Origin: a virus
Lineage: Duplodnaviria; Heunggongvirae; Uroviricota; Caudoviricetes
Virus record (IMG/VR): IMGVR_UViG_3300029466_000004
Coordinates: 9,952 to 73,951 of that record
Length of the DNA: 64,000 bases
Direction: 5' to 3' (one strand)
In this document: positions 1 to 64,000 of the stretch, one piece after another
Layout: each line of letters opens with the position of its first letter
Numbering within the stretch: position 1 is the stretch's first letter
Notes under the pieces: generated by a model
What the model saw: the letters and a program-made list of their open reading frames with translations, nothing else
Database searches by the model: none
What the model was told of the DNA's origin: nothing
Position numbers and translations under genes: made by a program

Positions 1-179
1 GCGGACGCATTGCAGAAGCCCGCTCCATTGTGGACATCGTGGATTCTGTATTGGAACCGCTCAATTTCTATCGAAAATCGTTTGCCCCGTTGAATGGGCT
101 GTACAACAATTCCGTCTATCGGATTGATTGCAGCTACGGGGCAACAATCGGAGAGGACGGAATGATTTACCGAAACTAA
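1..179 (+). CDS. tail terminator / tail completion protein, C-terminal fragment (5' partial)
   Basis: ~90% nt identity to the 3' end of the ORF at 55755-56156; stop at 177-179; immediately upstream of the major tail protein. Confidence 0.5.
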   Translation, partial: GRIAEARSIVDIVDSVLEPLNFYRKSFAPLNGLYNNSVYRIDCSYGATIGEDGMIYRN

Positions 180-194
180 GGAGGTAAACATTCT

Positions 195-632
195 ATGAGT
201 ACTGCTATCTCCGGTCTGAATACCACCCTATATTGTGGCGACAGCGCAACCGCTCTGACGAAGCTGTGCGACATCAAGGATGTACCCGACCTGATCTCTG
301 AGCCGAACCTTCTGGATGCCACCACTCTGTCTGACCCCATGCAAGTCAACATCTTTGGCATTATCCAGTCTGATACCAAGTCTTTTACCGCCAACTACAA
401 CAAGACTGACTACAAGAAGGTCAAGGAAGCTGGCTACGATGAGACTTCCGAGAGCAACGCTGTGAAGTACTACGCCCTGAAGATGCAGGACGGCTCCGGC
501 TTCACTTGGCAGGGCATGCATCAGGTTGGGCTGTCCGGCTTTGGCGTGGACGAGGTTGTGGAAATGACCATCAACTGCATCTTCACCAAGAAGCCTGAGT
601 TCAGCGAGACCCTGACTGTTGCTGGCGGCTAA
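195..632 (+). CDS. major tail protein (siphovirus-type)
   Basis: ATG with GGAGG RBS; position before the G/GT chaperones and tape measure; ~85% aa identity to 56172-56609. Confidence 0.55.
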   Translation: MSTAISGLNTTLYCGDSATALTKLCDIKDVPDLISEPNLLDATTLSDPMQVNIFGIIQSDTKSFTANYNKTDYKKVKEAGYDETSESNAVKYYALKMQDGSGFTWQGMHQVGLSGFGVDEVVEMTINCIFTKKPEFSETLTVAGG

Positions 633-716
633 ACCGCAAAAATCGAATCAATCAAACTGGGCAGAACTGAACAACGGATTTGGCTCTGCCCCTATTTATA
701 AAGGAGAACATTTATT

Positions 717-1064
717 ATGGCTGCAAAGGTTATCAATTTTCATTCCCCCGATGGCAAGAACACTTATGAGCTGACTTTCACCCGTGACAGCGTGGAAGCT
801 ACCGAACGTGCAGGTTTTCAGATTGGCCAGTACACTCAGATGACCAATCTGCTGTCCAACTCCCGTGCCCTGTTCTACGGCGCTTTTATCGCACGGAACA
901 AGGGCATCAAGCGCAAGGTCGTTGATGAGATGTTCCAGCACATCGAGGAGAAGGAAGATCTGATGGGCATTCTGCTTGAGATGTTCATGGACGCTTCCAA
1001 GTCCCTGCTGGCAACTGATACTGAGGACAAGACTGCAAAAAACGCAACGTGGGAGATTGTGTAA
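717..1064 (+). CDS. tail assembly chaperone (gpG-like)
   Basis: 115 aa ORF directly upstream of the tape measure; overlapped by a -1 frame ORF; slippery heptamer near its 3' end. Confidence 0.6.
   Translation: MAAKVINFHSPDGKNTYELTFTRDSVEATERAGFQIGQYTQMTNLLSNSRALFYGAFIARNKGIKRKVVDEMFQHIEEKEDLMGILLEMFMDASKSLLATDTEDKTAKNATWEIV
1037..1043 (+). promoter_or_regulatory. programmed -1 ribosomal frameshift slippery heptamer A_AAA_AAC (G/GT chaperone)
   Basis: gca AAA AAC in the zero frame fits X_XXY_YYZ; the -1 frame continues into ORF 1049-1471; same motif conserved at ~57014-57020 in the second copy. Confidence 0.5.
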
Positions 1065-1471
1065 CCGCACAATCTCAGGAATCAGACGGAGAAGGAGAAC
1101 CGGTTTCCTTCTCCAAGCTGTTCCACGATGTAGAAGCCTATTACATCTCCATCGGTATGACATACGAACAGTTCTGGCACGGCGATGTCTGGCTGGCTAA
1201 GGTATACCGTGACGCAGAGGAGCTGCGAGAACGCAGAGCCAATGCAGAAGCGTGGAGAAATGGTTTTTACATGGCATCCGCGCTTTCCTCTACGGTTGGC
1301 AATATGTTCCGAAAGAAAGGGACTAGACCTATCAAGTACATGGATAGACCGATTCCCCTTACTCAAAAGGAGAAGGAAGAGTATGAATACCAACGTGCTG
1401 CGGAAGCACAGGAGCGAATCAAACGCATGATGTTCTCCATGATGGAAAAGGATGGTGGTAGTGATGGCTGA
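1049..1471 (+). CDS. tail assembly chaperone -1 frameshift extension (gpT-like part of the G-T fusion)
   Basis: ORF in the -1 frame overlapping the end of 717-1064; ends at the tape measure start; canonical siphovirus arrangement. Confidence 0.5.
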   Translation: MGDCVTAQSQESDGEGEPVSFSKLFHDVEAYYISIGMTYEQFWHGDVWLAKVYRDAEELRERRANAEAWRNGFYMASALSSTVGNMFRKKGTRPIKYMDRPIPLTQKEKEEYEYQRAAEAQERIKRMMFSMMEKDGGSDG

Positions 1472-4400
1472 TGTTGATATTACAAGCTTATCCGTAGAAA
1501 TCTCTGCGGAATCGCAGGGCGCAGAGCTTAATATCGACAAGCTCGCTACCGCCATTTCTAATTTGCGCACAAAGGGCAACGTGGCAAAGGTTTGCAGTAG
1601 TCTTGATAAGTTATCTGCTTCTATTTCCGCTCTTAAATCTGCATCTACTGGGCTGGACGGCCTTAGCAAAATCACGTCTTTTATGAACGGCCTTGCTAAT
1701 GTAGACCTTACTCAAAGTGCAAAGGGCATCCGCTCTGTTGCTAATGCTTTGAACAAAATTTCGTCCGTCAATCTTGGAAACATGGATTTTTCCGGACTTG
1801 GCAGCAGGATGAACAGCTTGAAGAACGGCCTTTCCCCTATTTCTTCTATTAGCGATTCTTCCATTAAGAGTTTGCGTGGCGTAAGCAGTGCAATCAATTC
1901 CATTGCTAAAATCCCAAGCATTACAAAGAAGCTGGACTCTAAAACGCTTGATGATTTTGCGGAAGTTTGTAAGAAAGTGGCATCCGCTATTTCTCCACTC
2001 GCTTCCAAACTGGACAAGGTAGGGCGCTCTTTTTCTTCACTCCCATCTAAAATTAAAAGTGCTGTCAATTCTACAACCCGCTTTTCTTCGGCAAACCAGA
2101 AAGCAAGTACTAGCCTTTCAAGTTTGGCAAGCCAGTTAGAAACCATCAAGAAACGTGCAGCACAGCTAGTTTCTCTTAAAGCTATTGCCACTTATCTTGC
2201 CAATGCCGTTACTAAGTTCAATGACTTTTATGAAGCAACAGACTTGTTCAATAACGCAATGGGCGAGTTAAGCGGTCAAGCAACAGAGCTTATCAATAAG
2301 ATGGAGTCTCTGCTTGGCATCGACCCGACAGAAGCAATGACAAATATTGCTACGATCCAAAGCCTTGCAACTTCGTTCGGTCTAGCAAGCGATAAAGCGT
2401 ATATCTTATCCAAGAACCTGACCCAACTTGCCTATGACGAATCGTCCTATTGGAATAAAGATACTGCTACCACCTTTACCGCAATTGCTTCTGCTATCTC
2501 TGGAGAACTTGAGCCTATTCGCCGTTTGGGCGTTGATCTGTCTCAGGCACGGTTACAGCAGGAACTTCTTTCTTTGGGATTTAACAAACAGGTTTCTAGC
2601 CTGTCCCAGGCAGATAAAGCAGTTCTGCGTTACATTGCCATTATGAAGCAGACCGCCAATGTGCAGGGCAACCTTGCACAGACCATTAGTAGCCCCGCCA
2701 ATATGGTACGCATTTTGAAGTCTGAAATTTCACAGCTTGCAAAAGCTGTTGGTCAGCTTCTTTATCCCGCATTTAAGGCGATTCTCCCCGTTCTGATTGC
2801 GGCAGTTGACCTTATCAAAGAATTTGTGGTCTCTCTTGCATCTGTGTTCGGACAGAAAATTGAATTTACTGATTTTAGCAAGACACAGAAAGATATTGGT
2901 GGCGTGGCCAACGCTATGGATGACACCGCCGATGCTACAAAATCGGCAGCAAAAGCAGCCAAAGACTATACGATGGGTTTTGATGAATTAAACATTATCG
3001 ACCCTTCACAAAACTCTGGTTCTTCCGGTTCTGGTGGCGGCGCTACTGGTAATTTGCTCGGTGATGTTGACCTTTCCCAGTATGATATGTTCAAAGATTA
3101 TGCTGGAAGCGCTGTTGATGAGATTAAGGCGAAATTAAAATCTCTCGATTCTTTTCAAATCGGAACCCAAATTGGTGAACAGCTAAATAAACTTATGGGC
3201 ATGATTTATGATGCCATCCATTCTGTTGATTGGGCCTCGCTTGGAGCGGTTTTTGCAGATGGCGTTAACGGGCTCGTGGATTCTGTAGACTGGGATTTAT
3301 TTGGCCGATTACTTGCAGACCGATTCATTATCGAGTTTGAGCTTCTTGGCGGCTTTCTGTCTCGGCTTGACTGGACATCTGTATTAAATGCCTTTATTGA
3401 TGGTTTTTCTGGATTCTTTCACGAACTTTCAGATTGGATAGCAACAGTAGATTGGACTGGTGTTGGGAAGCAATTAACTGATAAGCTTTCCGATGCTTTC
3501 CAAAATGTTGAGATTGAAAAGCTTGCAAGAGTTCTTTTCAACTTTATCACTGATAGCATTAACGCTGTTTCTGATTTCTTGGCTGGAACAGATTCTTACC
3601 AGCTCGGTCAAGACCTCGTTGACTTTGCTATTAGAGCCGTTACTTCTGTAGATTGGGCCGGGCTAGCTCAAGCCATAGGTCGTTTCTTTGGCGAAGCGTT
3701 CATTGAAGCGCTCGACTTCATGGGTGGTCTAGTTTCTCGAATTGCCGATTATTTTGAAAAGAAAGTAGCAGAGGGGCCGTTCGATAATGTTGGCCTGAAT
3801 ATCGTCTACGGTATTTATTACGGCATTCAAGACGCAATCACGAATGTTGCTTCTTGGATTGTTGAAAATGTGTTCAATCCGTTTATCAATGGCTTTAAGT
3901 CTGCCTTTGGAATAAATTCCCCATCTACCGTAATGGCCGAACAAGGCGGATACATTATCGCCGGATTGAAGAAAGGTATCACTGACGCTATCTCTGGCGT
4001 AACTGAAACTGCGAAGAAAATTCTTTCTGCAATCAAGAGCGCATTTGACAATTTTAGCCTTTTTGATATTGGCAAGAACCTGATTCAGGGTCTTATTGAT
4101 GGCGTGAACAACATGATTGAAACGGCCAAAAATGCTGTTGCAAATGTTGGAAACGCAGTTATCGACAAGGTTAAGAACGTTCTCGGCATCCACTCCCCTT
4201 CTACGGTGTTTGCAGAGATTGGCGGTTACATCGACCAAGGCCTTGCAAACGGCATTGCTGCGGCTGTCTCCTACGTCACCGCTGCTATGCAGGGTGTTGT
4301 AGATGCTGTGCAGGAGAAGGGACAGGCACTGATTGATGCTGGCTCTACTCAGGTTACCAGCTACGTTACCGGGTTCTTGAACGGTCTGGATACCCAGTGG

Positions 4401-5405
4401 CAGCAGATTGATCAGAGCTTACAATCTGATTTCTTTGGTAGCATCGGCACTCTGTGGGATGCGATTTCTAACGGAGACCTTGAAAAGCTCGGCACATGGG
4501 CGGCTTCCTATTTCTATCATGCAATGGATGATGAGCAGCGAAAGCAAATCAAGTCCATTGCCAATAACAGTTTGCAGTGGCTGACGCAGGGGTTGAGCAG
4601 TGTTTGGAACAACATTGCCGGTATGGCATCGAGCTTTATCAGTCAGTTCGTCCCTTCTGCTATGGCTGCAACGTCTGCTCAAACGAGTTTGAACATTGCA
4701 ATGGACGCAAACCCTGTTATGCTGGTTATTTCCTTGATTGGCATGTTGGTTGGCGCTCTTGTCAATTTTGCCAATAAGAACAAGAGCATCGCTTCGTTCC
4801 TGTCTAATCTTTGGTACGGAATCGGCGATTTCTTTTCGATTGTTTTTGAGGGGATTCTCCGCGTTCTCGGAACGGCAATTCAAGGCATCGTTGCCGGAAT
4901 AAACGTTTTAATTGATGCACGCAATTTCTTTAATCCCTTTGATAAATGGGGGCATATCAGCAACCCTCTTTATGATTGGGCTGACAATGTTAAAAGCAGT
5001 CGTGAGGAGAGCCAGCGTAAACGCCAAGAAGCAGCCAATGGCAGCTTCGATGATTCTAAAGACCAGACCGATTACGAACGGCAGTACAAGGAGCTTCTGG
5101 AAAAATACAAAAATGGTTCTTATCCTGGCACAAAAGAGTGGGATAAAAACAACGGAACATCCTCCGGCTCTTATGGCGGCACCACCAGTGTAAATGTCAA
5201 CATCAACGAAGAGGAAATGCGCGAATCTGTCTACAATGGCACTTACAACGCATTCCTCGATATCTTCCAGCGGTATGGTAACGAGCTGACCGGTGGCAAG
5301 GAACTCAAAATTTATCTTGACGGAAAGCAGATTACAGCATCTGTTGAGAAACGGCAGAACGCCCGTGGACAGTCTTTGATGGGCAGTGAGGTTTATAGCT
5401 ACTAA
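1464..5405 (+). CDS. tail tape measure protein (1313 aa)
   Basis: very long Ala/Ser/Leu-rich protein after the chaperones; N-terminus near-identical to the 57441-61523 copy, then mosaic. Confidence 0.85.
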   Translation: MADVDITSLSVEISAESQGAELNIDKLATAISNLRTKGNVAKVCSSLDKLSASISALKSASTGLDGLSKITSFMNGLANVDLTQSAKGIRSVANALNKISSVNLGNMDFSGLGSRMNSLKNGLSPISSISDSSIKSLRGVSSAINSIAKIPSITKKLDSKTLDDFAEVCKKVASAISPLASKLDKVGRSFSSLPSKIKSAVNSTTRFSSANQKASTSLSSLASQLETIKKRAAQLVSLKAIATYLANAVTKFNDFYEATDLFNNAMGELSGQATELINKMESLLGIDPTEAMTNIATIQSLATSFGLASDKAYILSKNLTQLAYDESSYWNKDTATTFTAIASAISGELEPIRRLGVDLSQARLQQELLSLGFNKQVSSLSQADKAVLRYIAIMKQTANVQGNLAQTISSPANMVRILKSEISQLAKAVGQLLYPAFKAILPVLIAAVDLIKEFVVSLASVFGQKIEFTDFSKTQKDIGGVANAMDDTADATKSAAKAAKDYTMGFDELNIIDPSQNSGSSGSGGGATGNLLGDVDLSQYDMFKDYAGSAVDEIKAKLKSLDSFQIGTQIGEQLNKLMGMIYDAIHSVDWASLGAVFADGVNGLVDSVDWDLFGRLLADRFIIEFELLGGFLSRLDWTSVLNAFIDGFSGFFHELSDWIATVDWTGVGKQLTDKLSDAFQNVEIEKLARVLFNFITDSINAVSDFLAGTDSYQLGQDLVDFAIRAVTSVDWAGLAQAIGRFFGEAFIEALDFMGGLVSRIADYFEKKVAEGPFDNVGLNIVYGIYYGIQDAITNVASWIVENVFNPFINGFKSAFGINSPSTVMAEQGGYIIAGLKKGITDAISGVTETAKKILSAIKSAFDNFSLFDIGKNLIQGLIDGVNNMIETAKNAVANVGNAVIDKVKNVLGIHSPSTVFAEIGGYIDQGLANGIAAAVSYVTAAMQGVVDAVQEKGQALIDAGSTQVTSYVTGFLNGLDTQWQQIDQSLQSDFFGSIGTLWDAISNGDLEKLGTWAASYFYHAMDDEQRKQIKSIANNSLQWLTQGLSSVWNNIAGMASSFISQFVPSAMAATSAQTSLNIAMDANPVMLVISLIGMLVGALVNFANKNKSIASFLSNLWYGIGDFFSIVFEGILRVLGTAIQGIVAGINVLIDARNFFNPFDKWGHISNPLYDWADNVKSSREESQRKRQEAANGSFDDSKDQTDYERQYKELLEKYKNGSYPGTKEWDKNNGTSSGSYGGTTSVNVNINEEEMRESVYNGTYNAFLDIFQRYGNELTGGKELKIYLDGKQITASVEKRQNARGQSLMGSEVYSY

Positions 5406-5419: not shown

Positions 5420-5794
5420 ATGGCGATTCCAGCACTGGTAACGGTAAACGGCGTAGAGCTGCCAGAGCCAAGCTCCTATGAAGCGACAACTAGTACCATT
5501 GTAGATTCTGGACGAAACGTTCAAGGCAAAGTAGTCGGCTCTGTTGTGCGGCATGATGTAGCAAAGGTGTCCCTGAAGTGGAACTACCTCACCGCACAGC
5601 AGTGGGCCGCTATCCTCAGCCTGTTCACGACACGATTTTACTGCACTGTTCGCTTTTATAATCAGGCAAAGGCCGGGTATGATACGCGGCAGATGTACGT
5701 TTCAGACCGCACATCTGGTATGTGGCGGCGTGGGCCGAAAACCGGCAATGTGATGGGCTGGACGGATTGCTCGATTGCGCTTGTGGAGGTGTAG
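5420..5794 (+). CDS. small tail protein (post-tape-measure position)
   Basis: GGAGG RBS; homolog at 61530-61916; position after tape measure. Confidence 0.4.
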   Translation: MAIPALVTVNGVELPEPSSYEATTSTIVDSGRNVQGKVVGSVVRHDVAKVSLKWNYLTAQQWAAILSLFTTRFYCTVRFYNQAKAGYDTRQMYVSDRTSGMWRRGPKTGNVMGWTDCSIALVEV

Positions 5795-5797
5795 CCT

Positions 5798-7405
5798 ATG
5801 GTACAACCTTCTCAGAAGTGGGTTGAAAAGTTCTCCGAAACGCTTGTACCGGAGATGTTTGTACGCATCACCTATGGCGTTACGGAACCGGGTCTGCAAG
5901 AAGATGCAATTCCTAGCACAAACGGCGAAACATTCTTCAGCAATGTATCCTCTATTGTTGACAGTAAATTGCAGACTTACACAAAATATTCTACTGGTGA
6001 ATTGAATTTCACTGTTTTGGACGGCAATTATACCTTGCTAGACAAAAACGTGGAATTACAAGAAGCTGGTTACGTTAGTGAAAATTGCGTTTCGATTTCA
6101 AACCACCCGATCATTACGCTCTCGTTCAGCAAAGTTCATACCGTGACGATTCCTGGCATTACCATTACATGGTCGTCAACATTCAATGAATGGCCAACAA
6201 GTTTCAAGCTGACTGCTTATTCTGGAAGCACAGTCGTATCTACCAAAACGGTGTCGGACAATTCTTCTATCACCACTGACATTGACTTTGAAATTGCAAA
6301 TTACGATTCCATTTCCATTCAAATCTTGTCGTGGTGTTTGGAAAATCGGCGTGCACGAGTTGAGCAGGTAAAACTGGGCCAATTCATTGTGTTTGAGAAG
6401 AAAGACATCTTTTCGTATAAGCATGATTCCACAAGAGACCCGATCAGCGGACAACTTCCGAATGATAGCATTACTTTTACGGTGGATAACAGCACACAGA
6501 AGTGGAATCCAATAAACCCGGAAGGCCTTTACAAATACCTATACGAGCGTCAGCCTATCTCTGTGGAGTACGGCATGGACTTGGACGGAACGGTAGAATG
6601 GATTACAGGCGGCAAGTTCTTCTTGTCTGAATGGAATGTTCCATCTAATAGTATCGAAGCCAGCTTTACCGCCCGTGATGCTTTTGGCTATCTTATGGTT
6701 TCCAACTACACAGGAAGAATGTACGGCACTCTTTATGAGATGGCCTACGATGCGCTGGAGCTTTTGAGCGATAACGTGGCAACGTTTCAGATTTCCGATG
6801 AACTGAAACAATATAGCACGGATATCACAAAGCAGGATAAAGGCAACTATAAGGATTCTGATATTTTACAGATGGTTGCCAACGCAGCTGGCATGGCGAT
6901 GTATCAAACCAGAGAAGGCGTGATCGTAATCGGTCGCATTCCTGATATCTCTACTGCAAAAGCAAACATTGCCGGTGAAATTGATATTGTCAACAACTTC
7001 AGCTGGCCTGAAATTGCATTTTCTTCCCCTTTGAAAAATGTAACCTGTTCGATTGATGTGAAATCTTCCGATGGCTCGAGCACTACAAGCAAAACGTATT
7101 CTTACCCAGAAAACCCGGCAGGGGGTGGAGCAACGCAGACTGTCAACAATGAAATGCTGTCTCAAAGCATTCTCGGCCAAAGCAGGAATATTTTGACAGA
7201 AGCGTACAAAGTGCTTTCCAACCGCCGCAAGGTCACATTGGAATATCGTGCAAGCCCGCACTTTGATGCGCTGGATTACGTCCTTGTTCATCACCAGTTC
7301 GGCTATTCCTCTGTACTGCTGACTACAAGTTTTTCTTATCAGTATTCCGGCTGTTTTCACGGGACGGTCGAAGGGTATCTCTTGGAAGGAGCTGATGTTC
7401 GTTGA
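5798..7405 (+). CDS. distal tail / baseplate protein (535 aa)
   Basis: position after tape measure; homolog begins at 61921 with a longer C-terminus. Confidence 0.45.
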   Translation: MVQPSQKWVEKFSETLVPEMFVRITYGVTEPGLQEDAIPSTNGETFFSNVSSIVDSKLQTYTKYSTGELNFTVLDGNYTLLDKNVELQEAGYVSENCVSISNHPIITLSFSKVHTVTIPGITITWSSTFNEWPTSFKLTAYSGSTVVSTKTVSDNSSITTDIDFEIANYDSISIQILSWCLENRRARVEQVKLGQFIVFEKKDIFSYKHDSTRDPISGQLPNDSITFTVDNSTQKWNPINPEGLYKYLYERQPISVEYGMDLDGTVEWITGGKFFLSEWNVPSNSIEASFTARDAFGYLMVSNYTGRMYGTLYEMAYDALELLSDNVATFQISDELKQYSTDITKQDKGNYKDSDILQMVANAAGMAMYQTREGVIVIGRIPDISTAKANIAGEIDIVNNFSWPEIAFSSPLKNVTCSIDVKSSDGSSTTSKTYSYPENPAGGGATQTVNNEMLSQSILGQSRNILTEAYKVLSNRRKVTLEYRASPHFDALDYVLVHHQFGYSSVLLTTSFSYQYSGCFHGTVEGYLLEGADVR

Positions 7406-7866
7406 CCCGGTGGATCACAGACAGAACCGATGATGATGTTGCGCAAGTCAAGGCGCTTGCATCAAAAGCAAAAGCAGGAACGTGGACAGAGGAAGAGCAG
7501 GCAGAGTGGGCTTCCGGCATGAAAGGTGCTCTAAGCTACATGGACTACAACCGCATTGAAAGCGGTATTCAAGAGATTGCTGCCATCCTGAATGCGCCTG
7601 TTTCAGTCAAAACCGACTGGGATGTAAACGGATACCTGACTGTCGCAGATGCTTCCCGGTGGCTTTCCAATATCAAAGTTATTCGTTCTTTGTGCAGTGG
7701 CAAAAACGATACTCCCGAAACTCCCGCTTCCCTCAATTATCTGCATTATACGATTATCAACCAGGTCGAGGAAATTTTGCTCGATATCGAAACGATAGCC
7801 AACAACCATCTAATCTACTGCTCAGAGCCGGTCTGTGGAGGTGAACCTTACTATGCACTTTGTTGA
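7402..7866 (+). CDS. tail-associated protein
   Basis: TTG start overlapping the upstream stop (operon coupling); tail module context. Confidence 0.3.
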   Translation: MTRWITDRTDDDVAQVKALASKAKAGTWTEEEQAEWASGMKGALSYMDYNRIESGIQEIAAILNAPVSVKTDWDVNGYLTVADASRWLSNIKVIRSLCSGKNDTPETPASLNYLHYTIINQVEEILLDIETIANNHLIYCSEPVCGGEPYYALC

Positions 7867-8281
7867 CCGAGAAGCGAAGTACCCAAACCGATGGACAATG
7901 ACTAAGCCGGACGGTTCGTCCGAAGTCGTCACCCTTGTTCGCAATGACGAGCCAATCGTTGAAGGCACTCCTATGAATGCCGAAACGTTGAACACTCTTT
8001 CAGATGTTGCAGGTGCGGACATTGCAAGAATTGCTGCCGAAAAAGCAGAACTGAACGCAAAACGGTCTGAAATAAATGCTGAAACATCCGCGCAAGAATC
8101 TCAGAAGCAAGCCGAAAAGTCTGCTGAAAGCGCCCGTCTTGCAGAACAGAGTGCAAATAAAGGCGGCTGGATGGATTTCGAGCAGAAGAACGGCATCCTT
8201 TATATGGTCAAGAGTGATAGCTTAACCGAAATAAATATGCAAGACAATGGCTCTGGAATTTTGGAGGTGACGTTTGAATGA
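7853..8281 (+). CDS. tail fiber-associated protein (Ala/Glu-rich coiled coil)
   Basis: ATG with GGAGG RBS; precedes the tail fiber; coiled-coil composition. Confidence 0.35.
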   Translation: MHFVDREAKYPNRWTMTKPDGSSEVVTLVRNDEPIVEGTPMNAETLNTLSDVAGADIARIAAEKAELNAKRSEINAETSAQESQKQAEKSAESARLAEQSANKGGWMDFEQKNGILYMVKSDSLTEINMQDNGSGILEVTFE

Positions 8282-9396
8282 GCAAAACAATCGAAATTGG
8301 CCCTTATAGCGCCTATGCCATTGCTGTAAAGTTTGGCTATGTGGGCACAGAAGAGGACTGGATTAAAGCAGTTGAAGCGGCTCGAAAGAGCGCAGAAACA
8401 AGTGCAGCCAATGCAAAGCGGGAAGCGGACAAGGCTTTGGCTTCTGCCAATACTGCCATTGAACGGGCTGGAATTGCAACCACAAAAGCTGGAGAATCTG
8501 CCGCATCCGCTGATGCTTCTGCATCCAGTGCATCTGCCGCTGCAATCAGTGAAGCCAATGCAAAGAAATACTCGGAAGAGGCCGGGGCCAAAGCAAATAC
8601 CGATAAGACCCTGAGCATCGAAAACGCCCCTGCCGACGCAAAGGCTACCGGTGATGCGCTGGCGGGCAAAGCAGACTCCGTTGATCCACATGATCTTTCC
8701 ATTCCGATTACGGGGTGGCAAACAGACACGGAGGTTGCAGAGTACCCGCATTACATTGATATTACAGCAGATGTTACGTCCACGACTGTGGTATCTGTCA
8801 GCATCGACCCTGCAAGCGCAGACGTAGCCGGTAAAGCTATGCTTGTAAACCCTGAAACTCGAACCGGAGCTATCCGCATCCGTGCACACAACATTCCGAC
8901 TGCGGAAATTTCCGCCCGGTGGTATCCCATCAAGTATGGCGGTCAGTTCTATGGTGACGGCTCCATCTACTCCAACTTCCTGCTTGCGGCACATCCTGTG
9001 GGCAGCATTTATCAAACTATTAGCCCTGAAAATCCGTCCGTAACTTTTGGCGGCGGCACGTGGGAACGAATTGAAGGGCGCTTTATCATGGGTGCAAGCG
9101 ATACCTACCCGGAAGGGAGTACGGGTGGCGAAGCGGAGCACGCTCTGACTGAAAGTGAACTGCCAAATGTAACTGGTCGTTTTGACTTTCAATCAGACGG
9201 AAATAGTCAGGGTATTGTAACTGGAGCAGATGGTGTATTTAGTTTTGGCCAAATGTCTATTGGGGGTTTCCGACCGAACAATAAAATAGATGAATCGGGT
9301 TGTGCTCGGCAAATTATAATGTCTTTTGGCTCTAACTCACCTCACAACAACCTACCCCCATACATCGCCGTGTATATCTGGCGCAGAGTAGCATAA
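8278..9396 (+). CDS. tail fiber protein with C-terminal collar-like receptor-binding domain
   Basis: Ala/Ser-rich shaft then ...HPVGSIYQT...GGGTWERIEGRF...HALTESELPNVTG... collar-like motif; ends YIWRRVA. Confidence 0.6.
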   Translation: MSKTIEIGPYSAYAIAVKFGYVGTEEDWIKAVEAARKSAETSAANAKREADKALASANTAIERAGIATTKAGESAASADASASSASAAAISEANAKKYSEEAGAKANTDKTLSIENAPADAKATGDALAGKADSVDPHDLSIPITGWQTDTEVAEYPHYIDITADVTSTTVVSVSIDPASADVAGKAMLVNPETRTGAIRIRAHNIPTAEISARWYPIKYGGQFYGDGSIYSNFLLAAHPVGSIYQTISPENPSVTFGGGTWERIEGRFIMGASDTYPEGSTGGEAEHALTESELPNVTGRFDFQSDGNSQGIVTGADGVFSFGQMSIGGFRPNNKIDESGCARQIIMSFGSNSPHNNLPPYIAVYIWRRVA

Positions 9397-9411
9397 CCGA
9401 AAGGAGAAACA

Positions 9412-9891
9412 ATGGCACTAGGAGAACTCAAAAATGGCATTGGCCCTGATGCCTATGCTATCTATCAGCAAGTCCTTGCGGCGGTAGTCGAGCGAGACCA
9501 CCCCGTGGGCAGCCTGTACATCAGCGAAAACGCTACCAGCCCGGCAGAGCTTTACGGCGGCACATGGGAGCGCATTGAGGATTGCACTATCTGGGGTGCA
9601 AGCGATACACATCCAGCCGGTACGACGGTTGAGGCTGGACTGCCGAATATTACAGGCAGTTTCGCGTTTTCTTCCTACTCTGGCTCTGGGGGATGGCTTC
9701 ATGTCGCTAGTGCTACAGGTGCTTTCGGAGGCAGAACAGGTTCTGGCGCGGTGGCTCAGGCAGGTGTTGCTGGCTATAGCGGCCCCATAGCCGTTGGTAT
9801 GGATGCTTCCAAGGAGAGCCAAATTTACGGCAACAGCGATACCGTCCAACCCCCGGCATACTGCCTATACCTATGGCGAAGAGTGGCATAA
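9412..9891 (+). CDS. second collar-domain tail fiber-like protein (paralog of the fiber C-terminus)
   Basis: HPVGSLYIS...GGTWERIED...LPNITG...; ends YLWRRVA like the upstream fiber. Confidence 0.5.
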   Translation: MALGELKNGIGPDAYAIYQQVLAAVVERDHPVGSLYISENATSPAELYGGTWERIEDCTIWGASDTHPAGTTVEAGLPNITGSFAFSSYSGSGGWLHVASATGAFGGRTGSGAVAQAGVAGYSGPIAVGMDASKESQIYGNSDTVQPPAYCLYLWRRVA

Positions 9892-9906
9892 CCGAAAGGA
9901 GCACAC

Positions 9907-10278: not shown

Positions 10279-10290
10279 GAGGAGGATACT

Positions 10291-49632: not shown

Positions 49633-49765
49633 CAACGATTCACTTCTGTTTTCATGGAAATTTTCCTTTTACAACCTCCAATCGTTATTCCCGGCTCTCG
49701 ATGAAATGGGTTTTGTGACATTTTACCATTTCAAAGAGCAACGATGAATTAAGCCGGGTACATGA

Positions 49766-50176: not shown

Positions 50177-50267
50177 ATAGCTTTTGAAGCGCAGTTTTGG
50201 CGCAGTGAGATAGACCTTAACAGGTTTGTCTTGCTGCGCTTTTTATTTTGCCGGAAAGGAGGAACGC

Positions 50268-52150: not shown

Positions 52151-52260
52151 AAATCAATCCGCGTAAGCGGGCTGATATATTCCGGCAGGGAAGCCGGGAT
52201 ACAAATTTCGCAGCGTTGCAGGGAAGCAACGGTAAAAAAACGCAGGAGGAAATTAACGAT

Positions 52261-52842: not shown

Positions 52843-52855
52843 CAAGGAGGAAAAC

Positions 52856-53224: not shown

Positions 53225-53240
53225 TAGGAGGTAAAACAAC

Positions 53241-57041: not shown

Positions 57042-57448
57042 CCGCACAATCTCAAGAATCAGACGGAGAGGGAGAACCGTTTTCCTTCTCCAAGCTGTTC
57101 CACGATGTAGAAGCCTATTACATCTCCATCGGCATGACCTACGACCAGTTCTGGTACGGCGATGTCTGGCTGGCTAAGGTATACCGTGACGCAGAGGAGC
57201 TGCGAGAACGCAGAGCCAATGCAGAAGCATGGAGAAACGGTTTTTACATGGCATCTGCGCTTTCCTCTACGGTTGGCAATATGTTCCGAAAAAAAGGGTC
57301 TAGCCCCATCAAGTACATGGATAGACCGATTCCCCTTACTCAAAAGGAGAAAGACGAGTATGAATACCAACGCGCAGTTGAAGCGCAGGAGCGAATCAAG
57401 AGAATGATGTTCTCTATGATGGAAAGTGATGGTGGTAGCGATGGCTGA
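57026..57448 (+). CDS. tail assembly chaperone -1 frameshift extension (gpT-like)
   Basis: homolog of 1049-1471. Confidence 0.5.
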   Translation: MGDCVTAQSQESDGEGEPFSFSKLFHDVEAYYISIGMTYDQFWYGDVWLAKVYRDAEELRERRANAEAWRNGFYMASALSSTVGNMFRKKGSSPIKYMDRPIPLTQKEKDEYEYQRAVEAQERIKRMMFSMMESDGGSDG

Positions 57449-60400
57449 TGTTGATATTACGAGCTTATCCGTAGAAATCTCTGCGGAATCGCAGGGCGCA
57501 GAGCTTAATATCGACAAGCTCGCTACCGCCATTTCTAATTTGCGGACAAAGGGCAACGTGACAAAGGTCGTCAACAGCCTTGATAAGCTGTCCGCTTCCA
57601 TTTCTGCGCTGAAACAGGCGTCTGCTGGCCTGTCTGGGCTGGACAAAATCACCAGCTTTTTGAATGGAATTTCCAATGTCAACACGACTGCAAGCACAAA
57701 GAGCATCAACACGGTCGTAAATGCAATCAAGAAGATTCCTACGGCAGTCTCCGGCTTGAACGGCGTGGACTTCTACTCCATGTCTGGAAGCATTACTCAG
57801 CTCACCAACGCTTTGGCTCCGCTGTCTATTTTGGACGCATCAAACCTTAAAGCTCTTGGCAGCGCTTTCAATGCGATCGGAAAAGTTCCTGATCTGACCG
57901 ACAAGCTGAAAGCAACAGACCTTGATTCTTTTGCAAGCTCTTGTCAGAAGATTTCTGCTGCCCTTACTCCCCTTGCATCTCAGCTTGACAAGGTTGGCAA
58001 CGCTTTTGCAAAGCTGCCGCCGCAGTTGAGCAAGGTGGTCACACAGGCAAACCGTGTGACTGCTGCCAACGAACGACAGAAAAAAAGCTATCTCAGCCTG
58101 TCTAACCAGCTGAATGGTTTCATGCTGTCTGCGAAAAAGCTGGTTTCGCTGAAAGCTATTGCTGAGTATCTTGGCAAAGCTGTTGCGAAATTCAATGACT
58201 TTTACGAAGCGACAGACCTGTTTCATAATGCTATGGGCAATTTGAGCGGTGAAGCAGATACGCTCATTAGCAAGATGCAAGGCCTGCTTGGAGTTGACCC
58301 GACCAAAGCGATGACCTACATGGCCACCATCCAGAGCTTAGGTACTTCGTTTGGTTTGGCCAGCGACAAAGCTTACGTTCTGTCTAAGAACCTGACTCAG
58401 CTTGCCTATGACGAAGGTTCCTATTGGAACAAGGACGTTGCAGAAACCTTTACCGCAATGTCTTCCGCAATCTCTGGCGAGATTGAGCCTATTCGCCGTT
58501 TGGGCGTTGACTTGTCTCAAGCACGGTTACAGCAGGAGCTTCTTGCTTTAGGCTTTAACAAACAGGTTTCTAGTCTGTCTCAGGCAGATAAGGCGGTTCT
58601 GCGTTACATTGCCATTATGAAGCAGACTGCCAACGTGCAGGGTAATCTTGCGCAGACCATCCAAAGCCCTGCGAACCAGATTAAGATTCTGAAAGCTCAA
58701 CTTGATATGTTGGCAAAGTCTGTTGGTTCTCTGCTCTACCCTGCCATGAAATCCATTCTTCCTCCGCTGATTGCCGCCGTGCAGCTCATTCGAGAGTTCG
58801 TTGAATGGGTGGCAAAGCTGATGGGTGTGAAGGTCGTGTTCACTGATTTCACCAAGAGCGCTGACAGTGTTGGCGGTATCGGCGACGCAATGGATAATAC
58901 AGCCGATTCGACAAAGAAAGCCGCCAAAGCCCTCAAGGACTACACGATGGGCTTTGATGAATTGAACATCATTGACCCCACACAGGGAAGCTCTGGCTCT
59001 GGCAGCGGCGCATCTGCTGGCAACATCTTGGGCGATGTAGACCTGTCCGGCTACGATATGTTCAAGCAGTACAATGAAGAGTTTGCAAAGCAGATTGACG
59101 CTATAAAGCAGAAAATCAAAGATATGCTGCCGGTTATTGGCGCTATTTCTGCTGCACTCGCATTGTGGAAAATCACCAATTTCCTGACGAACATTGCAAC
59201 AGCAATTTCTAAAATGACGGATTTGCAAAAGTTGGCTCTTTCGATTGCAACAGTTGTTGTCGAAGCATCGTTAGTATTCAGTTTTGCAAAAGGCTACGCA
59301 TCTAGTGGAAATCCTCTTGAGCTTTTAGGCGAAGTGGTGTCTGCTGCGTTTGGCTCTTTTGTTCTTTGGCGCACAATGGGCGCGGATGGCGTTACGCTTG
59401 GCATGGGCATCGCTTTTGTGGCGAGCCTTGCAGGTCTTACTTATGCACTTGGTACTGGCGAAGCCAATCTTGGCGATGCAAGCACATGGATTCAGGCTGC
59501 TTTAACAACGGCATTCGGTTCTATTACTGGTATCACACTGCTCACCAATCTTGGAGCAGCCTCTGGTACAGCCGCAACGCTTTCTATCGGTCTTGCAGGT
59601 CTTATTACCTTTGCGGGAATTACATTCTCGCTTGGTGAAAAGCTGAAAGAATTTCCCGTTCTTGACACCATCATCACTGCTCTGATGGGGATTTTTGGCG
59701 GTGCTGCTGGTGCTGGCGTTGCATTGCTTGTTGGTGCAAGCCTTCCTGTTGCTGGGGCCGTTGCCGCTGCTGGTGTCGGTATTGGCCTTGTTCTTCACTG
59801 GGCTGGTATCAAATGGGGCGCTAAAGAGAGCGGCGAAAAAACAGATGCTGCCGCAGAAGCCGACATTAAAATGCATTATGTCGAAAATGTTTTTGAGCAG
59901 CGTATCGATGCCATCAAACAAATCATTGTCACTAAGTGGAACGCTGTCATTGACTTTATGACTTCTCTGCCTGAAAAGGTTGGGAACATCGTAAGTAGCA
60001 TTGGCGAGTGGTTCAGCTCTCTTCCTGAAAAAATCGGCTATGCCCTTGGCTTTGCCGTCGGCAAAATCGGGGAGTGGGTCGAAAACATGATCGTTACTGT
60101 AACAACCGAAGTTCCAAAAATCGTTTCGTCTGTTGTTAAGTTTTTTGAAGAACTGCCGGGGAATATTTGGACTGCAATTCTCAAAGCTCTTGACGTTATT
60201 TCTAAATGGCGGGAGCGCATGATAGCTTTCGTTGTTATTGAAGTTCCAAAAATCATTTCGTCTATTGTCGGCGAGTTCAAAAAGCTTCCTGACAAATTGA
60301 GAAAGCTTGGAAAATTCATCTGGGATGGCCTAATCAACGGCCTAAAAGATGCATGGAGTACCGTTACAAATGGTATTAAGAGCTTCACTGATGGCTTTGT

Positions 60401-61523
60401 CAATGGCTTCAAAGATGCGCTTGAAATTCATTCTCCTTCGCAAGTGTTTCACCAAATCGGTGTTTATGTCGTTCAAGGCCTTGCAAACGGCATCACTGGC
60501 TCCCTCGGTTATGTCAACGATGCTACGAATAAACTCGTAGACGCCACCAAGCTCAAGGGCGAAGAGGTGGTGGATTATGGCATCGAATGCGGTACCGGCT
60601 ACGTCAACGGAATCATTTCCGGGCTAGACTCTAAGTGGGCCGAACTCGACAACAACCTCAAAACCAACTTCTTCGGTACGGTGCAAACTTTCATTCAGGC
60701 CGCGCAGAGTGGCGACTGGAAAACAGTCGGCACTACTATTGCTGCTTCCATCTGGGGCGCTATGGGCGATGAGCAGCGTAAACGCGTCAAGTCCGTTGCA
60801 AGCGATTTGCTTGGCAGACTGAGCAAAGAATTGAAAAGCCAAGCTTCTTCCCTGCTGAATACAGCCGCTACCATTGGCAAAAATCTGGTGAGCGCACTGA
60901 CTCAGAATTTTGGCGCTGCCACACAAAATACGGCAAAGATGGTCGAGAACATTACCAGCGTGTTCACTAAATCGAAGACTCCGCTCTCGACCGCAGCGCT
61001 TGCAATCAGTAAAGGCTTGTCTGGCGGATTACTGAGCCAGTTCCCGAAGATGCTTGCTGGCGTAGCTGGTTTGATTACTACGATTGGCGGCGCTTTTACC
61101 GCCATGCTGGAAGCAATCGGTGGCACGTTGTCTGTACTTGGCATTCCTACTGGCTTTGCAATGGTTGCCGGTGGCGTGGCGATTGCCGCTGCTATCGCAG
61201 GCATTATTGGCAGTATCAGCCGTTCTAACTATAGCGACAGTTCTCAGTATGCTGGCACATCCAGTTATGACTCTACCTATGGGTCTGGTTCGTATAGTGG
61301 CACCTATTCTGCCGCAAGTGGAAACTCCGAAGAGATGAGAGATGCTGTGTACAACGGCTGCTACAATGCATTTCTTGACATCTGGCAGCGGTACGGAGAA
61401 GCAATCTCCGATGGCAGAGATGTGAAAGTGTACCTCGATGGCAAGCAGCTCACTGCTTCCGTTGAAAAAACGCAGAAAGAACGTGGCATGTCCATTATGG
61501 GTACTGAAGTTTACTCTTACTAA
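57441..61523 (+). CDS. tail tape measure protein (1361 aa)
   Basis: N-terminal 40 aa near-identical to the 1464 copy, diverged central region, conserved C-terminus ...GTEVYSY. Confidence 0.85.
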   Translation: MADVDITSLSVEISAESQGAELNIDKLATAISNLRTKGNVTKVVNSLDKLSASISALKQASAGLSGLDKITSFLNGISNVNTTASTKSINTVVNAIKKIPTAVSGLNGVDFYSMSGSITQLTNALAPLSILDASNLKALGSAFNAIGKVPDLTDKLKATDLDSFASSCQKISAALTPLASQLDKVGNAFAKLPPQLSKVVTQANRVTAANERQKKSYLSLSNQLNGFMLSAKKLVSLKAIAEYLGKAVAKFNDFYEATDLFHNAMGNLSGEADTLISKMQGLLGVDPTKAMTYMATIQSLGTSFGLASDKAYVLSKNLTQLAYDEGSYWNKDVAETFTAMSSAISGEIEPIRRLGVDLSQARLQQELLALGFNKQVSSLSQADKAVLRYIAIMKQTANVQGNLAQTIQSPANQIKILKAQLDMLAKSVGSLLYPAMKSILPPLIAAVQLIREFVEWVAKLMGVKVVFTDFTKSADSVGGIGDAMDNTADSTKKAAKALKDYTMGFDELNIIDPTQGSSGSGSGASAGNILGDVDLSGYDMFKQYNEEFAKQIDAIKQKIKDMLPVIGAISAALALWKITNFLTNIATAISKMTDLQKLALSIATVVVEASLVFSFAKGYASSGNPLELLGEVVSAAFGSFVLWRTMGADGVTLGMGIAFVASLAGLTYALGTGEANLGDASTWIQAALTTAFGSITGITLLTNLGAASGTAATLSIGLAGLITFAGITFSLGEKLKEFPVLDTIITALMGIFGGAAGAGVALLVGASLPVAGAVAAAGVGIGLVLHWAGIKWGAKESGEKTDAAAEADIKMHYVENVFEQRIDAIKQIIVTKWNAVIDFMTSLPEKVGNIVSSIGEWFSSLPEKIGYALGFAVGKIGEWVENMIVTVTTEVPKIVSSVVKFFEELPGNIWTAILKALDVISKWRERMIAFVVIEVPKIISSIVGEFKKLPDKLRKLGKFIWDGLINGLKDAWSTVTNGIKSFTDGFVNGFKDALEIHSPSQVFHQIGVYVVQGLANGITGSLGYVNDATNKLVDATKLKGEEVVDYGIECGTGYVNGIISGLDSKWAELDNNLKTNFFGTVQTFIQAAQSGDWKTVGTTIAASIWGAMGDEQRKRVKSVASDLLGRLSKELKSQASSLLNTAATIGKNLVSALTQNFGAATQNTAKMVENITSVFTKSKTPLSTAALAISKGLSGGLLSQFPKMLAGVAGLITTIGGAFTAMLEAIGGTLSVLGIPTGFAMVAGGVAIAAAIAGIIGSISRSNYSDSSQYAGTSSYDSTYGSGSYSGTYSAASGNSEEMRDAVYNGCYNAFLDIWQRYGEAISDGRDVKVYLDGKQLTASVEKTQKERGMSIMGTEVYSY

Positions 61524-61529
61524 GAAAGG

Positions 61530-61916
61530 ATGGTTCAGATGGCCAATATTCCTGCACTGGTTACGGTGAATGGCGTAGAGCTGCCGGAACCCTCCTCTTA
61601 TGAGGGAACGACTAGCACGATCGTGGACTCTGGGCGAAATGTTCAGGGTAAAGTTGTTGGCGCTGTCGTACGACATGACGTAGCAAAAGTCTCCATGTCA
61701 TGGAACTACCTCACCGCACGGCAGTGGGCCGACATCTTGAGTCTTTTCACTACGAATTTTTACTGCACTGTTAAATTCTATAACCAAGCCACAGCCGGTT
61801 ATACCACCCGTCAGATGTACGTCTCCGACCGCACCGGCGGAATGTGGCGTAGAGGGCCGAAAACCGGTGGCGTGATGGGATGGACGGGGTGCAAACTTTC
61901 TCTTGTGGAGGTATGA
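61530..61916 (+). CDS. small tail protein (homolog of 5420-5794)
   Basis: ~80% aa identity. Confidence 0.4.
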   Translation: MVQMANIPALVTVNGVELPEPSSYEGTTSTIVDSGRNVQGKVVGAVVRHDVAKVSMSWNYLTARQWADILSLFTTNFYCTVKFYNQATAGYTTRQMYVSDRTGGMWRRGPKTGGVMGWTGCKLSLVEV

Positions 61917-61920
61917 CACA

Positions 61921-64000
61921 TGGTTGAAGTCTCCGATAAGTGGAAAGAAAAATTTAACGAAACGCTCGTCCCGGAATCTTTTGTAGAGATTACCTGTGGA
62001 ATTACTGAACCTGGCATCAACAAAAAGGCTACCATCGTCACGTCATCGGCGGCCCCGTTCTCCACCTTTCACAATATTGCGCTTTCTGATAACGCTTCCA
62101 TTTCAAGATATTCCACAGGAGAGCCCAATCTCACTGTTCTTGATGGAAGCTGTAGCATCGTTCCTTCTTCTCCTCCGTATGGAACTACTGGTTTTTTGAG
62201 CGCCGAGATTTTTGACGATTCAAGTCACCCTGTTATTCGGCTTGAGCTTCCGAGCGAAAACAAATCTTCGATTCCCGGTGTTTCAATTTGCTGGTCTACA
62301 GCGTTTAACGAATACGCTACAGATTTTTCGGTCAGCGCATATCTTGGAGCCAAAAAGCTGAAAACCGTGACTGTGAACGGAAACAAATCCATTCGTTCTG
62401 ACGTTGAAGTAGAACTTTCCGGGTTTGATGCTGTAGAGCTAGAGGTGCTGAAGTGGTGTCTCCCCGACCGAAGAGTAAGGGTCGAGCAAGTGAAAATCGG
62501 AAGGTATCTGGTGTTTGACAAGACCAAAATCTTGTCCTACAGCCATTCTTCTGCAAGAGACCCTATCTCCGGGCAGCTTTCTCAGGAGTCGATTTCCTTT
62601 AGTTTAGACAACAGTGACCGCGCATGGGACTCCGTAAACCCTCAAGGGATTTACAAGTACATCTATGAGCGCCAGCCTGTCACCGTTCGTTATGGAATGG
62701 ATGTTGATGGAAAGACTGAATGGGTGAGCGGAGGAATGTTCTTCCTGTCGGAGTGGAGCGTCCCTGCCAACAGTATTGAGGCGTCCTTTCAGGCGCGAGA
62801 CGCTTTCCTGTATCTATCCAGCACGAAGTACACCGGAAGAAAATACGGCACGCTCTATGAGATGTGCTACGATGCCTTGGAGCTGTTGGAAGCGGATGAA
62901 ATTACCTTCGATATTTCGGATGAACTGAAAGATTACTCCACCGACATTACAAGCGATGAGTCTACTTATCACAATTCCGATATTTTGCAGCTTGCGGCAA
63001 ACGCTGCTGGAATGGCTTTGTACCAGACTCGTGATGGCGTGATAAAAATTAACAGAGTCTACGGAGCCGATACATCCAATCCCGTGTTGGACATTCCAGT
63101 ACTGAACAATTATTCTTGGCCGGAAATCACCTTTGCTCAAAATATGCTCAACGTGGTGACCACCGCAGGTGGCGTTACCTACGCTTATCCCGAAAGCCCT
63201 TCGGGCAAAGGCGTCAGCCAGACTTTGAGCAATGTTATGCTCACAAAGGACATCCTTGCAAAATCCAGGAATGCCCTTACAGAGTCTTATGGAGTCCTTT
63301 CCAACCGCCGCAAGGCTTCTCTCACATATCGGGCAAGCCCTACTATTGATGCTCTTGATATGGTAAAGATTCACCATCAGTTCAATTACGATGCTGTCTT
63401 GCTGGCAACCAATGTAAAGTACACTTTCAATGGGTGTTTCAAAGGTACTGTAGAGGGGTACATGATGGCAGATGCTCAGGCTATGTCTCTTGACCATACC
63501 AGCGAACAGCTTGGATGGGGCGAGTCCGTTATTTTGTCTGCTACCCTCTCCCCTGCTTCTATTGACTCTCCTAAAATCAACTGGGCAGCTTCTCCCGAAG
63601 GAATCGTCTCCCTTCACGTTCTGACGAATGCAGAAGGAAAATCCACCTGCCAAGTCAAGTGGAACTCTCCGGGCAAGGCTGTTGTCACAGTTTCAGCAGG
63701 CGGCGTCTCCGCAGAATGTTCCTTCGCTACGGCGTCGTACAATCTGTTTGATGTTGCGGAAGGCAGCACCGTTCTTATGAATGAGGGTGGCAACGTGGCC
63801 GAGTTCATCGTTGCAAAACATGACTACGAAAGCGAGCTGAATGGAGTCGGGCGAACTCTTCTGGTTCGAAAACACTACGCGGCTATCATGGCTTGGAGCT
63901 CTACATGGTCTACTTACGCCAGCAGCAGCGTAAACAGCTGGCTCAACGGAGAGTACTTCAACTCTTTCAGCTCCGCCCAGAAGCAAGCTATCGACAAGAC
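61921..64000 (+). CDS. distal tail / baseplate protein, 3' partial (homolog of 5798-7405 with extra C-terminal Ig-like region)
   Basis: MVEVSDKWKEKFNETLVPESF... aligns with MVQPSQKWVEKFSETLVPEMF...; open to the window end. Confidence 0.5.

Follow-up and report, generated by a model that had tools for sequence, protein, structure and literature searches.

A Rep_3/ParA phage-plasmid lineage of the human gut and a two-tailed contig that probably joins two of its co-resident strains

Related temperate phages may lie head to tail at a single attachment (att) site, as do the tandem prophages and double lysogens of lambdoid and Stx phages, an arrangement that needs an integrase, hybrid att junctions and chromosomal flanks. 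Circular replicons may likewise fuse into multimers or cointegrates, for which dedicated resolution systems exist such as Cre/lox of P1, cer/Xer of ColE1 and the Tn3-type resolvases. Phages may also be held as plasmids: the groups of such phage-plasmids, of which P1, N15 and SSU5 are known examples, have been surveyed by Pfeifer et al. 2021 (PMC7969092). Over-long viral contigs in which a genome is repeated are regarded by the authors of CheckV as probable metagenomic assembly artefacts (PMC8116208), and the variant genomes of mosaic phages, which assemblers do not resolve, have been described as “phage bubbles” within one component of the assembly graph (Phables, PMC10563150). Here we examine a 64,000-nt stretch of the tailed-phage record IMGVR_UViG_3300029466_000004 (positions 9,952 to 73,951; hereafter the window, i.e. 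the whole stretch analysed), which carries two diverged copies of one tail module at its two ends. Judging from its genes, the element concerned is probably a phage-plasmid, that is, a temperate siphovirus-like phage held as a circular plasmid of ~56-59 kb. We put at about 0.7 the probability that an assembler's path through a mixture of strains of this one circular replicon, and not two prophages in tandem, accounts for the window.

The repeated tail module and its two parental genomes

Self-BLAST of the window places direct collinear repeats ~55,977 bp apart, with E-values of 0 to 3e-7, well beyond what chance would yield. The duplication of the tail module proposed in a preliminary description of this DNA, positions 1-7.4 kb being collinear with 55,978-64,000, is thereby borne out, as is the order of its genes: the 3' end of a 133-aa head-tail gene, the major tail protein, the G/GT chaperones, the tape measure, a DUF6711 protein and a large distal-tail protein. 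The two copies and the type-A genes that follow the first of them are composed as follows (amino-acid lengths, aa; open reading frames, ORFs).

1..179, + strand: copy A head-tail gene, 3' end (last 58 codons of 133 aa), aligning with the C-terminus of the 55755-56156 product
195..632, + strand: copy A major tail protein, 145 aa, similar to the 56172-56609 product (phrog_158)
717..1471, + strand: copy A tail assembly chaperones, G of 115 aa (DUF5055) and an overlapping GT ORF of 140 aa, 94-95% identical to the copy B pair
1464..5405, + strand: copy A tape measure, 1313 aa, the exact protein being found in 24 contigs read
5420..7405, + strand: copy A DUF6711 protein (124 aa) and 535-aa distal-tail/baseplate protein (phrog_13879)
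7402..12001, + strand: type-A-specific tail-fibre, endolysin and small lysis-region genes, with PHROG tail, tail-fibre and endolysin matches
10412-11212, + strand: GH25 endolysin (PHROG endolysin match)
55755-56156, + strand: copy B head-tail gene, complete, 133 aa
56172-56609, + strand: copy B major tail protein (phrog_158)
56694-57448, + strand: copy B G/GT chaperones
57429..61523, + strand: copy B tape measure, 1364 aa, the exact protein being found in 11 contigs
61530..64000, + strand: copy B DUF6711 protein, 128 aa, followed by codons 1-693 of a DUF6273 distal-tail protein of 871 aa, which runs past the end of the window

The similarity between the copies is uneven. Nucleotide identity amounts to 88.0% between 2-1730 and 55979-57707, 73.0% between 2164-3094 and 58138-59065, 71.6% between 5207-5892 and 61328-62014, 67.8% between 6389-6924 and 62511-63043 and 70% between 7136-7276 and 63219-63359, and self-BLAST gave no DNA-level alignment over 3.1-5.2 kb, which is most of the tape-measure gene. 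The identity of 85-90% first reported for the module thus describes its first 1.7 kb, and falls to 68-74%, or to no alignment at all, further on. Nor are the first 180 bp near-identical, as had been stated: the first 74 bp of the window are ~76% identical to the second copy, and the near-identical stretch, with one mismatch, is 75-229. The longest exact run common to both copies is 92 bp. At the amino-acid level, the copies share 79% identity in the major tail protein, 95% in G, 94% in GT, 87% in the DUF6711 protein and 53% in the protein that follows; the tape measures are 65% identical in their N-terminal 560 aa and 34% at the C-terminal end, their lengths being 1313 aa for copy A, as previously given, and 1364 aa, not 1361, for copy B. 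Homologues of the copy A chaperones carry PF16478. Collinearity continues beyond the window end: an extension of copy B by a contig that is 100% identical to window 48829-64000 (L038) is 70-75% identical to window 7.4-8.0 kb and 84-86% identical to the lysis genes at 10.5-12.3 kb. Sequencing error was rejected as the cause of the differences between the copies, since either copy has 100% identical counterparts among independent contigs of other samples, and a divergence of 12-35% with indels and differing downstream gene content goes far beyond what hypermutation would produce.

Exact-protein look-ups in human-gut assemblies retrieved more than 100 loci of this family. Most of its long contigs, dozens of them independent, measure 55,975-59,628 bp and carry a single tail module of either of two types; some contigs reach 75-106 kb. 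Type A comprises the 1313-aa tape measure, the 124-aa DUF6711 protein, proteins of 535, 154, 142, 372 and 159 aa and a 266-aa GH25 endolysin. Type B comprises the 1364-aa tape measure (with variants of 1270-1368 aa), a 125/128-aa DUF6711 protein, an 863-872-aa DUF6273 protein, a 307-aa protein and variable fibres. Most of the 24 contigs with the exact tape measure of copy A are unit-length type-A genomes of 54-59 kb, and all 11 with that of copy B carry type-B downstream genes. The window itself starts inside the 133-aa head-tail gene, upstream of which type-A contigs run on for 3.5-8.5 kb with head genes. The type-A tail-fibre genes encode proteins of 154, 142-148, 372 and 159 aa, the last two with Gp10_C, and the gene set at 7402..12001 is identical in type-A unit genomes. 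The type-A tail and lysis genes with the adjacent block are, over 11-15 kb, 99.9-100% identical between window 1-15197 and contigs L026, L033, L047, L049 and L052, which stem from many unrelated cohorts and assemblers, suggestive of either a very recent worldwide spread or a strong conservation of this module.

The unit is most simply seen as a circle of ~56-59 kb, because unit-length contigs of the family are permuted: measured from the contig start, one and the same 128-aa tail gene is found at 13.5, 19.1, 20.4, 23.0, 30.3, 31.4, 46.2, 50.1 and 51.8 kb in nine contigs, of which eight are 57-59.5 kb long and one 62.3 kb. A type-B path stitched from window 15,034-64,000, then L038, then a further contig (L070) closes a circle of 59,464 bp. 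Given unit genomes of ~56-59 kb, the repeat offset of ~56 kb corresponds to about one genome turn. The earlier view that the window is not a circular wrap holds insofar as its two copies come from two different relatives, but the offset is that of a wrap, one in which the allele switches.

Each part of the window recurs in natural genomes of one type or the other. Positions 1-12,410 are 100% identical to a type-A contig of 58.8 kb (ERZ27255907 k141_296875), and several type-A unit genomes differ from 1-15,197 by 0-2 mismatches. At 15,198 this agreement ends, and type-A genomes then differ from the window at ~40 sites in 670 bp, after which homology is lost. Conversely, 14,745-28,610 show no mismatch to the type-B unit of the 100-kb contig scaffold_85 (L010), and two other type-B contigs (L011, L012) show none from 15,034, the last mismatches to these B genomes being 14744 (L010) and 15033 (both L011 and L012). 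Over 12.9-14.7 kb, B-type genomes and the window share 93-95% identity. Further on, the window is 100% identical to L083 over 36,051-46,729, to L008 over 46,628-59,337 and to L038 over 48,829-64,000. The window is therefore a type-A segment joined to a type-B genome inside an exact stretch of 164-453 bp that A and B share, its segments being identical to different natural genomes with 0-2 mismatches on the A side and 0 on the B side. The features at the switch are these.

12986..15860, + strand: conserved block common to A and B genomes, five genes (171, 83, 290 and 123 aa; DUF7841 protein of 212 aa)
14745..15197: crossover stretch, with type-A identity to its left and type-B identity to its right, the first A mismatch being at 15198

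The switch falls within the five-gene block, in coding sequence common to A and B. The preliminary description had sought the junction between two elements at 12.2-16 kb. There is no phage end there, window 1-15,197 being contiguous in type-A unit genomes; the gene-poor gap at 12.2-12.9 kb, which we considered as such an end and rejected, is likewise contiguous in type-A genomes, and B types carry a helix-turn-helix (HTH) gene at this place.

Other contigs pass through the switch region without changing type. All of the ~9 independent type-A contigs with enough right flank continue with an A-type right side, in which a protein of 156 aa (76 aa in a single contig) is accompanied by a DUF551 protein of 165 aa. 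The exact DUF7841 protein of the window occurs in 14 contigs; among the 10 of these that were inspected, none matches the A-type left flank of the window, and all seven with enough upstream context have a B-type left side, with the HTH gene and B-type lysis and tail genes. A search of IMG/VR for the A-left/B-right junction pattern gave 0 matches and is of low power, since the A-left/A-right control also gave 0 and B-left/B-right gave 5. Among the contigs examined, the A-left/B-right join thus appears to be unique to the window. None of the loci listed by the exact-protein look-ups had the layout of the window either, and a 40-mer from window position 40,000 had 11 exact matches in IMG/VR, none of them in a sequence identical to the window, 0 in GTDB genomes and 1 in JGI metagenomes, in a contig other than the source. 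One independent contig, scaffold_85 (LIUR17-1, 100,156 bp), likewise consists of a type-A unit joined to a type-B unit, but at 15.2 kb this contig retains the A-type right side, so that its switch must lie elsewhere, which speaks against a conserved dimer architecture; exact-protein look-ups did not find the DnaB or SPFH proteins of the window in its second unit.

Samples that match the window bear the marks of strain mixtures. Three MEGAHIT k127 contigs of sample ERZ917702 (run ERR1190577, PRJEB12123), 100% identical to the window, cover 15,071-21,933, 36,051-46,729 and 46,628 onward, and four of their five ends inside the window lie exactly 127 bp from single-nucleotide polymorphisms known in other strains (15071 = 15198-127; 36051 = 36178-127; 46729 = 46602+127; 46628 = 46755-127). 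A k119 contig of another sample starts at 48829, 119 bp before 48948, the first base past a 120-bp exact stretch shared by A and B. Contig ends at exactly k from strain polymorphisms are signatures of branches in the de Bruijn graph, and indicate that related strains, including A-type and B-type sequence, reside together. As the k127 contig L014 starts at 15071, 127 bp before the switch point of the window at 15198, the graph of ERZ917702 would branch exactly at that switch point. A and B types co-occur in several samples.

These observations favour the second of two possibilities raised in the preliminary description, namely two co-resident relatives joined by assembly, as the segments match separate A and B genomes and the switch lies in a stretch that these share. 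According to this reading, the family has alternative, exchangeable tail/host-range modules A and B, of which each real genome would bear one, and the source sample would hold at least two strains of the phage-plasmid. The assembly path would begin in a type-A genome, run through tail A and lysis A up to 15,197, cross to a type-B genome inside the exact shared stretch, and then follow the circle of the B genome past the genes for replication, recombination, packaging and the head until it reaches tail B. What look like two copies would then be two alleles of a single locus, each contributed by one of two co-resident genomes and strung in succession. As to the join, we infer from the anatomy of the element, the parentage of the segments, the crossover interval, the A-only and B-only unit genomes and the branch signatures in matching samples, all of which are observed directly, that it would have been produced during assembly, by a walk along a figure-eight or bubble of the de Bruijn graph, and would not exist on one DNA molecule.

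The plasmid replicon

Window ORFs were scanned against Pfam and PHROGs. Downstream of the five-gene block they include a plasmid-maintenance region.

16740..17366, - strand: ribbon-helix-helix/NikA-like protein (PF21983, 25.0 bits, under the cutoff of 27)
17883..18653, - strand: ParA partition ATPase, 256 aa (PF13614, AAA_31, 1e-53; PF01656, 2e-24)
18952..20073, - strand: Rep_3-family plasmid replication initiator (Rep3_N 1.6e-21, 77.6 bits; Rep3_C 6e-16, 58.9 bits; above the Pfam cutoffs)
20100..20198: array of 4.6 iterons with a unit of 21-22 bp (TGTACACCTnTTTCCAC...), directly upstream of rep
20606..21283, - strand: HTH_3 repressor-like protein (PF01381, 7.7e-10)

Inverted copies of the iteron lie 190-360 bp further on, at 20386-20406 and 20555-20575, and together with the array are likely to form the origin and the autoregulation site of the plasmid replicon. 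The NikA-like protein, by its operon position with ParA, is a candidate centromere-binding partner; no centromere repeats were identified. The phage set is complete: besides TerL, portal and major capsid it comprises the major tail protein, the tape measure, tail fibres and the GH25 endolysin. Among the window ORFs scanned, which did not include every ORF shorter than 100 aa, neither a PF00589 nor a large serine integrase was found, and no att-like boundary and no host DNA were found in the window, every segment of which recurs inside unit-length (56-60 kb) phage contigs of other samples. The element thus combines a full phage gene set with a replication initiator and its predicted origin and shows no integration machinery among the scanned ORFs, a content that fits the working definition of a phage-plasmid (PMC7969092). 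It is the Rep_3 initiator with its iterons and ParA, in the absence of an integrase, that mark it as a probable phage-plasmid, and the circular permutation of the unit-length contigs, which are devoid of host flanks, bears on its possible existence as an extrachromosomal circle.

Relatives in reference collections are distant. PLSDB contained no DNA match to the window, and the best capsid matches found there are 25-37% identical and belong to phage-plasmids of Clostridium, Lysinibacillus and lactobacilli, on plasmids of ~48-94 kb and on larger replicons. In the INPHARED phage collection only unannotated faecal-virome fragments match, with no close relative among the deposited phage genomes. 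A search of TerL against GTDB genomes yielded only a 61%-identical match in a Bacillota metagenome-assembled genome and a probable mis-binned fragment; the host is probably a member of the Bacillota.

One relative differs precisely in this region. The 106,077-bp contig scaffold_72 (L101; ENA ERZ28621324, NGSI22-1) carries a type-A tail and lysis module 99.98% identical to that of the window, and at its locus 12976-20138 other genes replace the whole plasmid-maintenance block, ending in a 377-aa tyrosine integrase (PF00589) beside an HTH repressor. With an integrase block in place of a plasmid block, the lineage appears to swap plasmid and integrative lysogeny modules.

Alternative origins of the join

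Several considerations weigh against a walk of the assembler through co-resident strains. That the window and the ERZ917702 contigs come from one sample is an assumption, and circularity is drawn from the permutation of the contigs and not from terminal repeats. A real heterodimer arising from one crossover gives the same short-read graph as two monomers. Furthermore, the 164-bp shared node is shorter than a typical insert, so that an assembler that makes use of read pairs should have phased it in a sample of parental monomers only, and the join may reflect a genuine recombinant junction in the sample. It may also be that a monomeric recombinant with tail A on a B backbone existed beside a B genome, in which case the two-tail layout would still be an artefact.

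The alternative that survives best, although we consider it unlikely, is a real heterodimer or cointegrate, one circle of ~115 kb with both tail modules of which the window would be a slice. It would have arisen by co-infection with two phage-plasmids of the same incompatibility and homologous recombination at 14,745-15,197, possibly by means of their own ERF and SSB. The layout is exactly that of one crossover between two circles inside perfect homology, the element encodes ERF, SSB and a resolvase-type recombinase as expected of a replicon that forms and resolves multimers, A and B types co-occur in several samples, and read pairs should have phased the 164-bp node were the join false. However, heads in this size class take up ~56-59 kb of DNA, every other examined contig of near-unit length with these tail genes has one tail module, the junction is in no other contig examined, and the only other confirmed two-unit contig, scaffold_85, switches at a different site. 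Homologous recombination across a near-identical backbone of ~40 kb would, in addition, quickly resolve such a dimer. The window holds one Rep/Par copy and one junction (A-left/B-right). A more specific version of this alternative, a ~115 kb heterodimeric cointegrate of two mutually incompatible strains fused at a short identical stretch, seems to us slightly more doubtful still. If the join were real, it would represent a natural case of incompatible phage-plasmids coexisting as a cointegrate, through which both strains would persist in one host lineage, one replicon would carry two tail (host-range) modules, and either virion type, or recombinants, could be packaged.

Far less probable are two related prophages integrated in tandem at one chromosomal site, the polylysogeny at one locus that the preliminary description had offered as its other possibility. 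Two diverged collinear tail modules ~56 kb apart might suggest it, and an integrase-bearing relative does exist in scaffold_72, but the scanned window ORFs include neither a tyrosine nor a large serine integrase and the window has a Rep_3/iteron/ParA replicon instead. There are no host genes, the junction proposed at 12.2-16 kb is contiguous in single type-A genomes, and the switch lies within conserved coding sequence and not at an att site. With no integrase, att site or host DNA, and with a plasmid replicon present, tandem chromosomal prophages are essentially excluded.

Least probable of all is a single larger genome with two tail sets, or a genome wrapped on itself whose copies differ by error or targeted hypermutation, to which the family contigs of 75-106 kb might seem to point, since each copy is 100% identical to independent contigs, the copies diverge from each other by 12-35% and by indels, a single tail module is what unit genomes carry (for which reason a real two-tail genome was rejected), and scaffold_72 and probably scaffold_97 (~100 kb) differ from the window downstream of the lysis genes.

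An assembly path through co-resident strains thus remains our preferred reading, and the two-tail arrangement is most likely not a real molecule.

Neighbouring genes, significance and comparison with known systems

The remaining features of the window lie between the replicon and copy B.

45005..45586, + strand: small serine recombinase of resolvase/invertase type, 193 aa (PF00239, 1.6e-35)
47670..54320, + strand: packaging/head module, single-copy, contiguous with tail B and found 100% identical in L008 and L038
47670-49337, + strand: TerL, in the packaging/head module
49766-49842, + strand: tRNA-Met (CAT), between the TerL and portal genes
50226-51770, + strand: portal, in the packaging/head module
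53241-54320, + strand: major capsid protein, in the packaging/head module

The 193-aa serine recombinase is the sole recombinase found in the window and a candidate multimer-resolution enzyme. The other genes make up a normal temperate siphovirus set, with two Rha/ANT antirepressors, ERF, SSB, RtcB, TerL, tail genes and endolysin, to which are added a PAPS-reductase-domain protein, an SPFH protein and a DnaB protein with DUF6291. The two Rha/ANT paralogues (22897-23673, + strand; 42722-43534, - strand) lie ~20 kb apart in opposite orientation and have in common a 113-bp inverted repeat (23089-23201; 43285-43173; 85%). An HNH_3 endonuclease ORF at 25627-26151, which adjoins and overlaps the ERF recombinase gene, is also found in L010, L012 and L013, and in L011 only the ERF gene is called in this interval; the ORF looks like a mobile homing-type endonuclease.

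The RtcB RNA ligase gene (46144-47358) lies between 239-bp direct repeats (45883-46121 and 47363-47601, 83% identical), each of which holds a near-identical 53-aa ORF (45897-46058; 47377-47538). It resembles an inserted cargo gene, as the relatives L004 and L005 are devoid of RtcB at the same spot, just upstream of TerL. TerL is 555 aa long in the window and 889 aa in type-A relatives (L046-L055), the last 413 aa of which match residues 143-555 of the window protein at 98.8%; at least 291 aa ahead of the matching 413 aa are without counterpart in the window, and the insertion of ~334 aa at residue ~142 is, by its size and position, intein-like and a candidate intein. Between the portal and scaffold genes lies a hotspot for cargo, occupied in the window at 51767-52150 by a 127-aa nucleoside deoxyribosyltransferase-like ORF (phrog_355). 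ORFs of the Acb2/Tad1-hairpin type (anti-CBASS/Thoeris sponges) are present in some relatives, either in this hotspot (L022-L024, ~540-825) or past the lysis genes (L029, L103). Past the window end, the type-B relatives L019, L021, L023 and L075 have, adjoining the type-B tail-fibre genes, ORFs whose reverse-transcriptase (RVT_1) matches are weak or faint and whose length is 398 aa, or 1052 aa in L019; these ORFs may belong to a diversity-generating retroelement acting on the receptor-binding protein.

A contig that re-enters a circular phage genome by way of a co-resident strain mimics tandem prophages or a duplicated tail module, and this calls for caution: to count the window as a case of polylysogeny, or as a genome of 64+ kb, would be wrong. 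The element itself, although hitherto undescribed, is conventional among phage-plasmids. Its lineage emerges as a very prevalent, uncultured human-gut phage-plasmid with a Rep_3/ParA replicon and at least two exchangeable tail/host-range modules, whose genomes are extremely clonal across cohorts and whose different tail types often share one gut; at least one relative has exchanged the plasmid module for an integrase module.

Among described systems, the element resembles phage-plasmids in combining a tailed-phage gene set with a plasmid initiator and ParA, in having no integrase, and in its variable, exchangeable plasmid/lysogeny region; unlike P1, which uses RepA, and N15, which uses a protelomerase, its replicon is of the Rep_3 type with iterons. 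The window is reminiscent of tandem prophages in presenting two related phage genomes head to tail, but the integrase, hybrid att junctions and chromosomal flanks of these were not found in it. It shares with plasmid cointegrates a recombination-proficient circular replicon, a small serine recombinase and a layout equal to one crossover between two circles; set against cointegrates with dedicated resolution systems, no res site was identified in it, its dimer would be hypothetical, and its recombinase is a candidate for such a role. Like the concatemers of CheckV, the window is longer than the genome should be and makes more than one turn of a circle; unlike them, it does not repeat the same genome with a k-mer frequency above 1, its second pass being a different strain. 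The copies are 68-88% identical, and with 92 bp as the longest exact repeat and a different strain in the second pass, a k-mer duplication test would not flag the window. Phables describes graph structure in general and neither this family nor this contig; as in its bubbles, co-resident strains share some unitigs, differ in others the size of a module and are not phased by assemblers, and here contigs end at exact k-mer offsets from strain polymorphisms.

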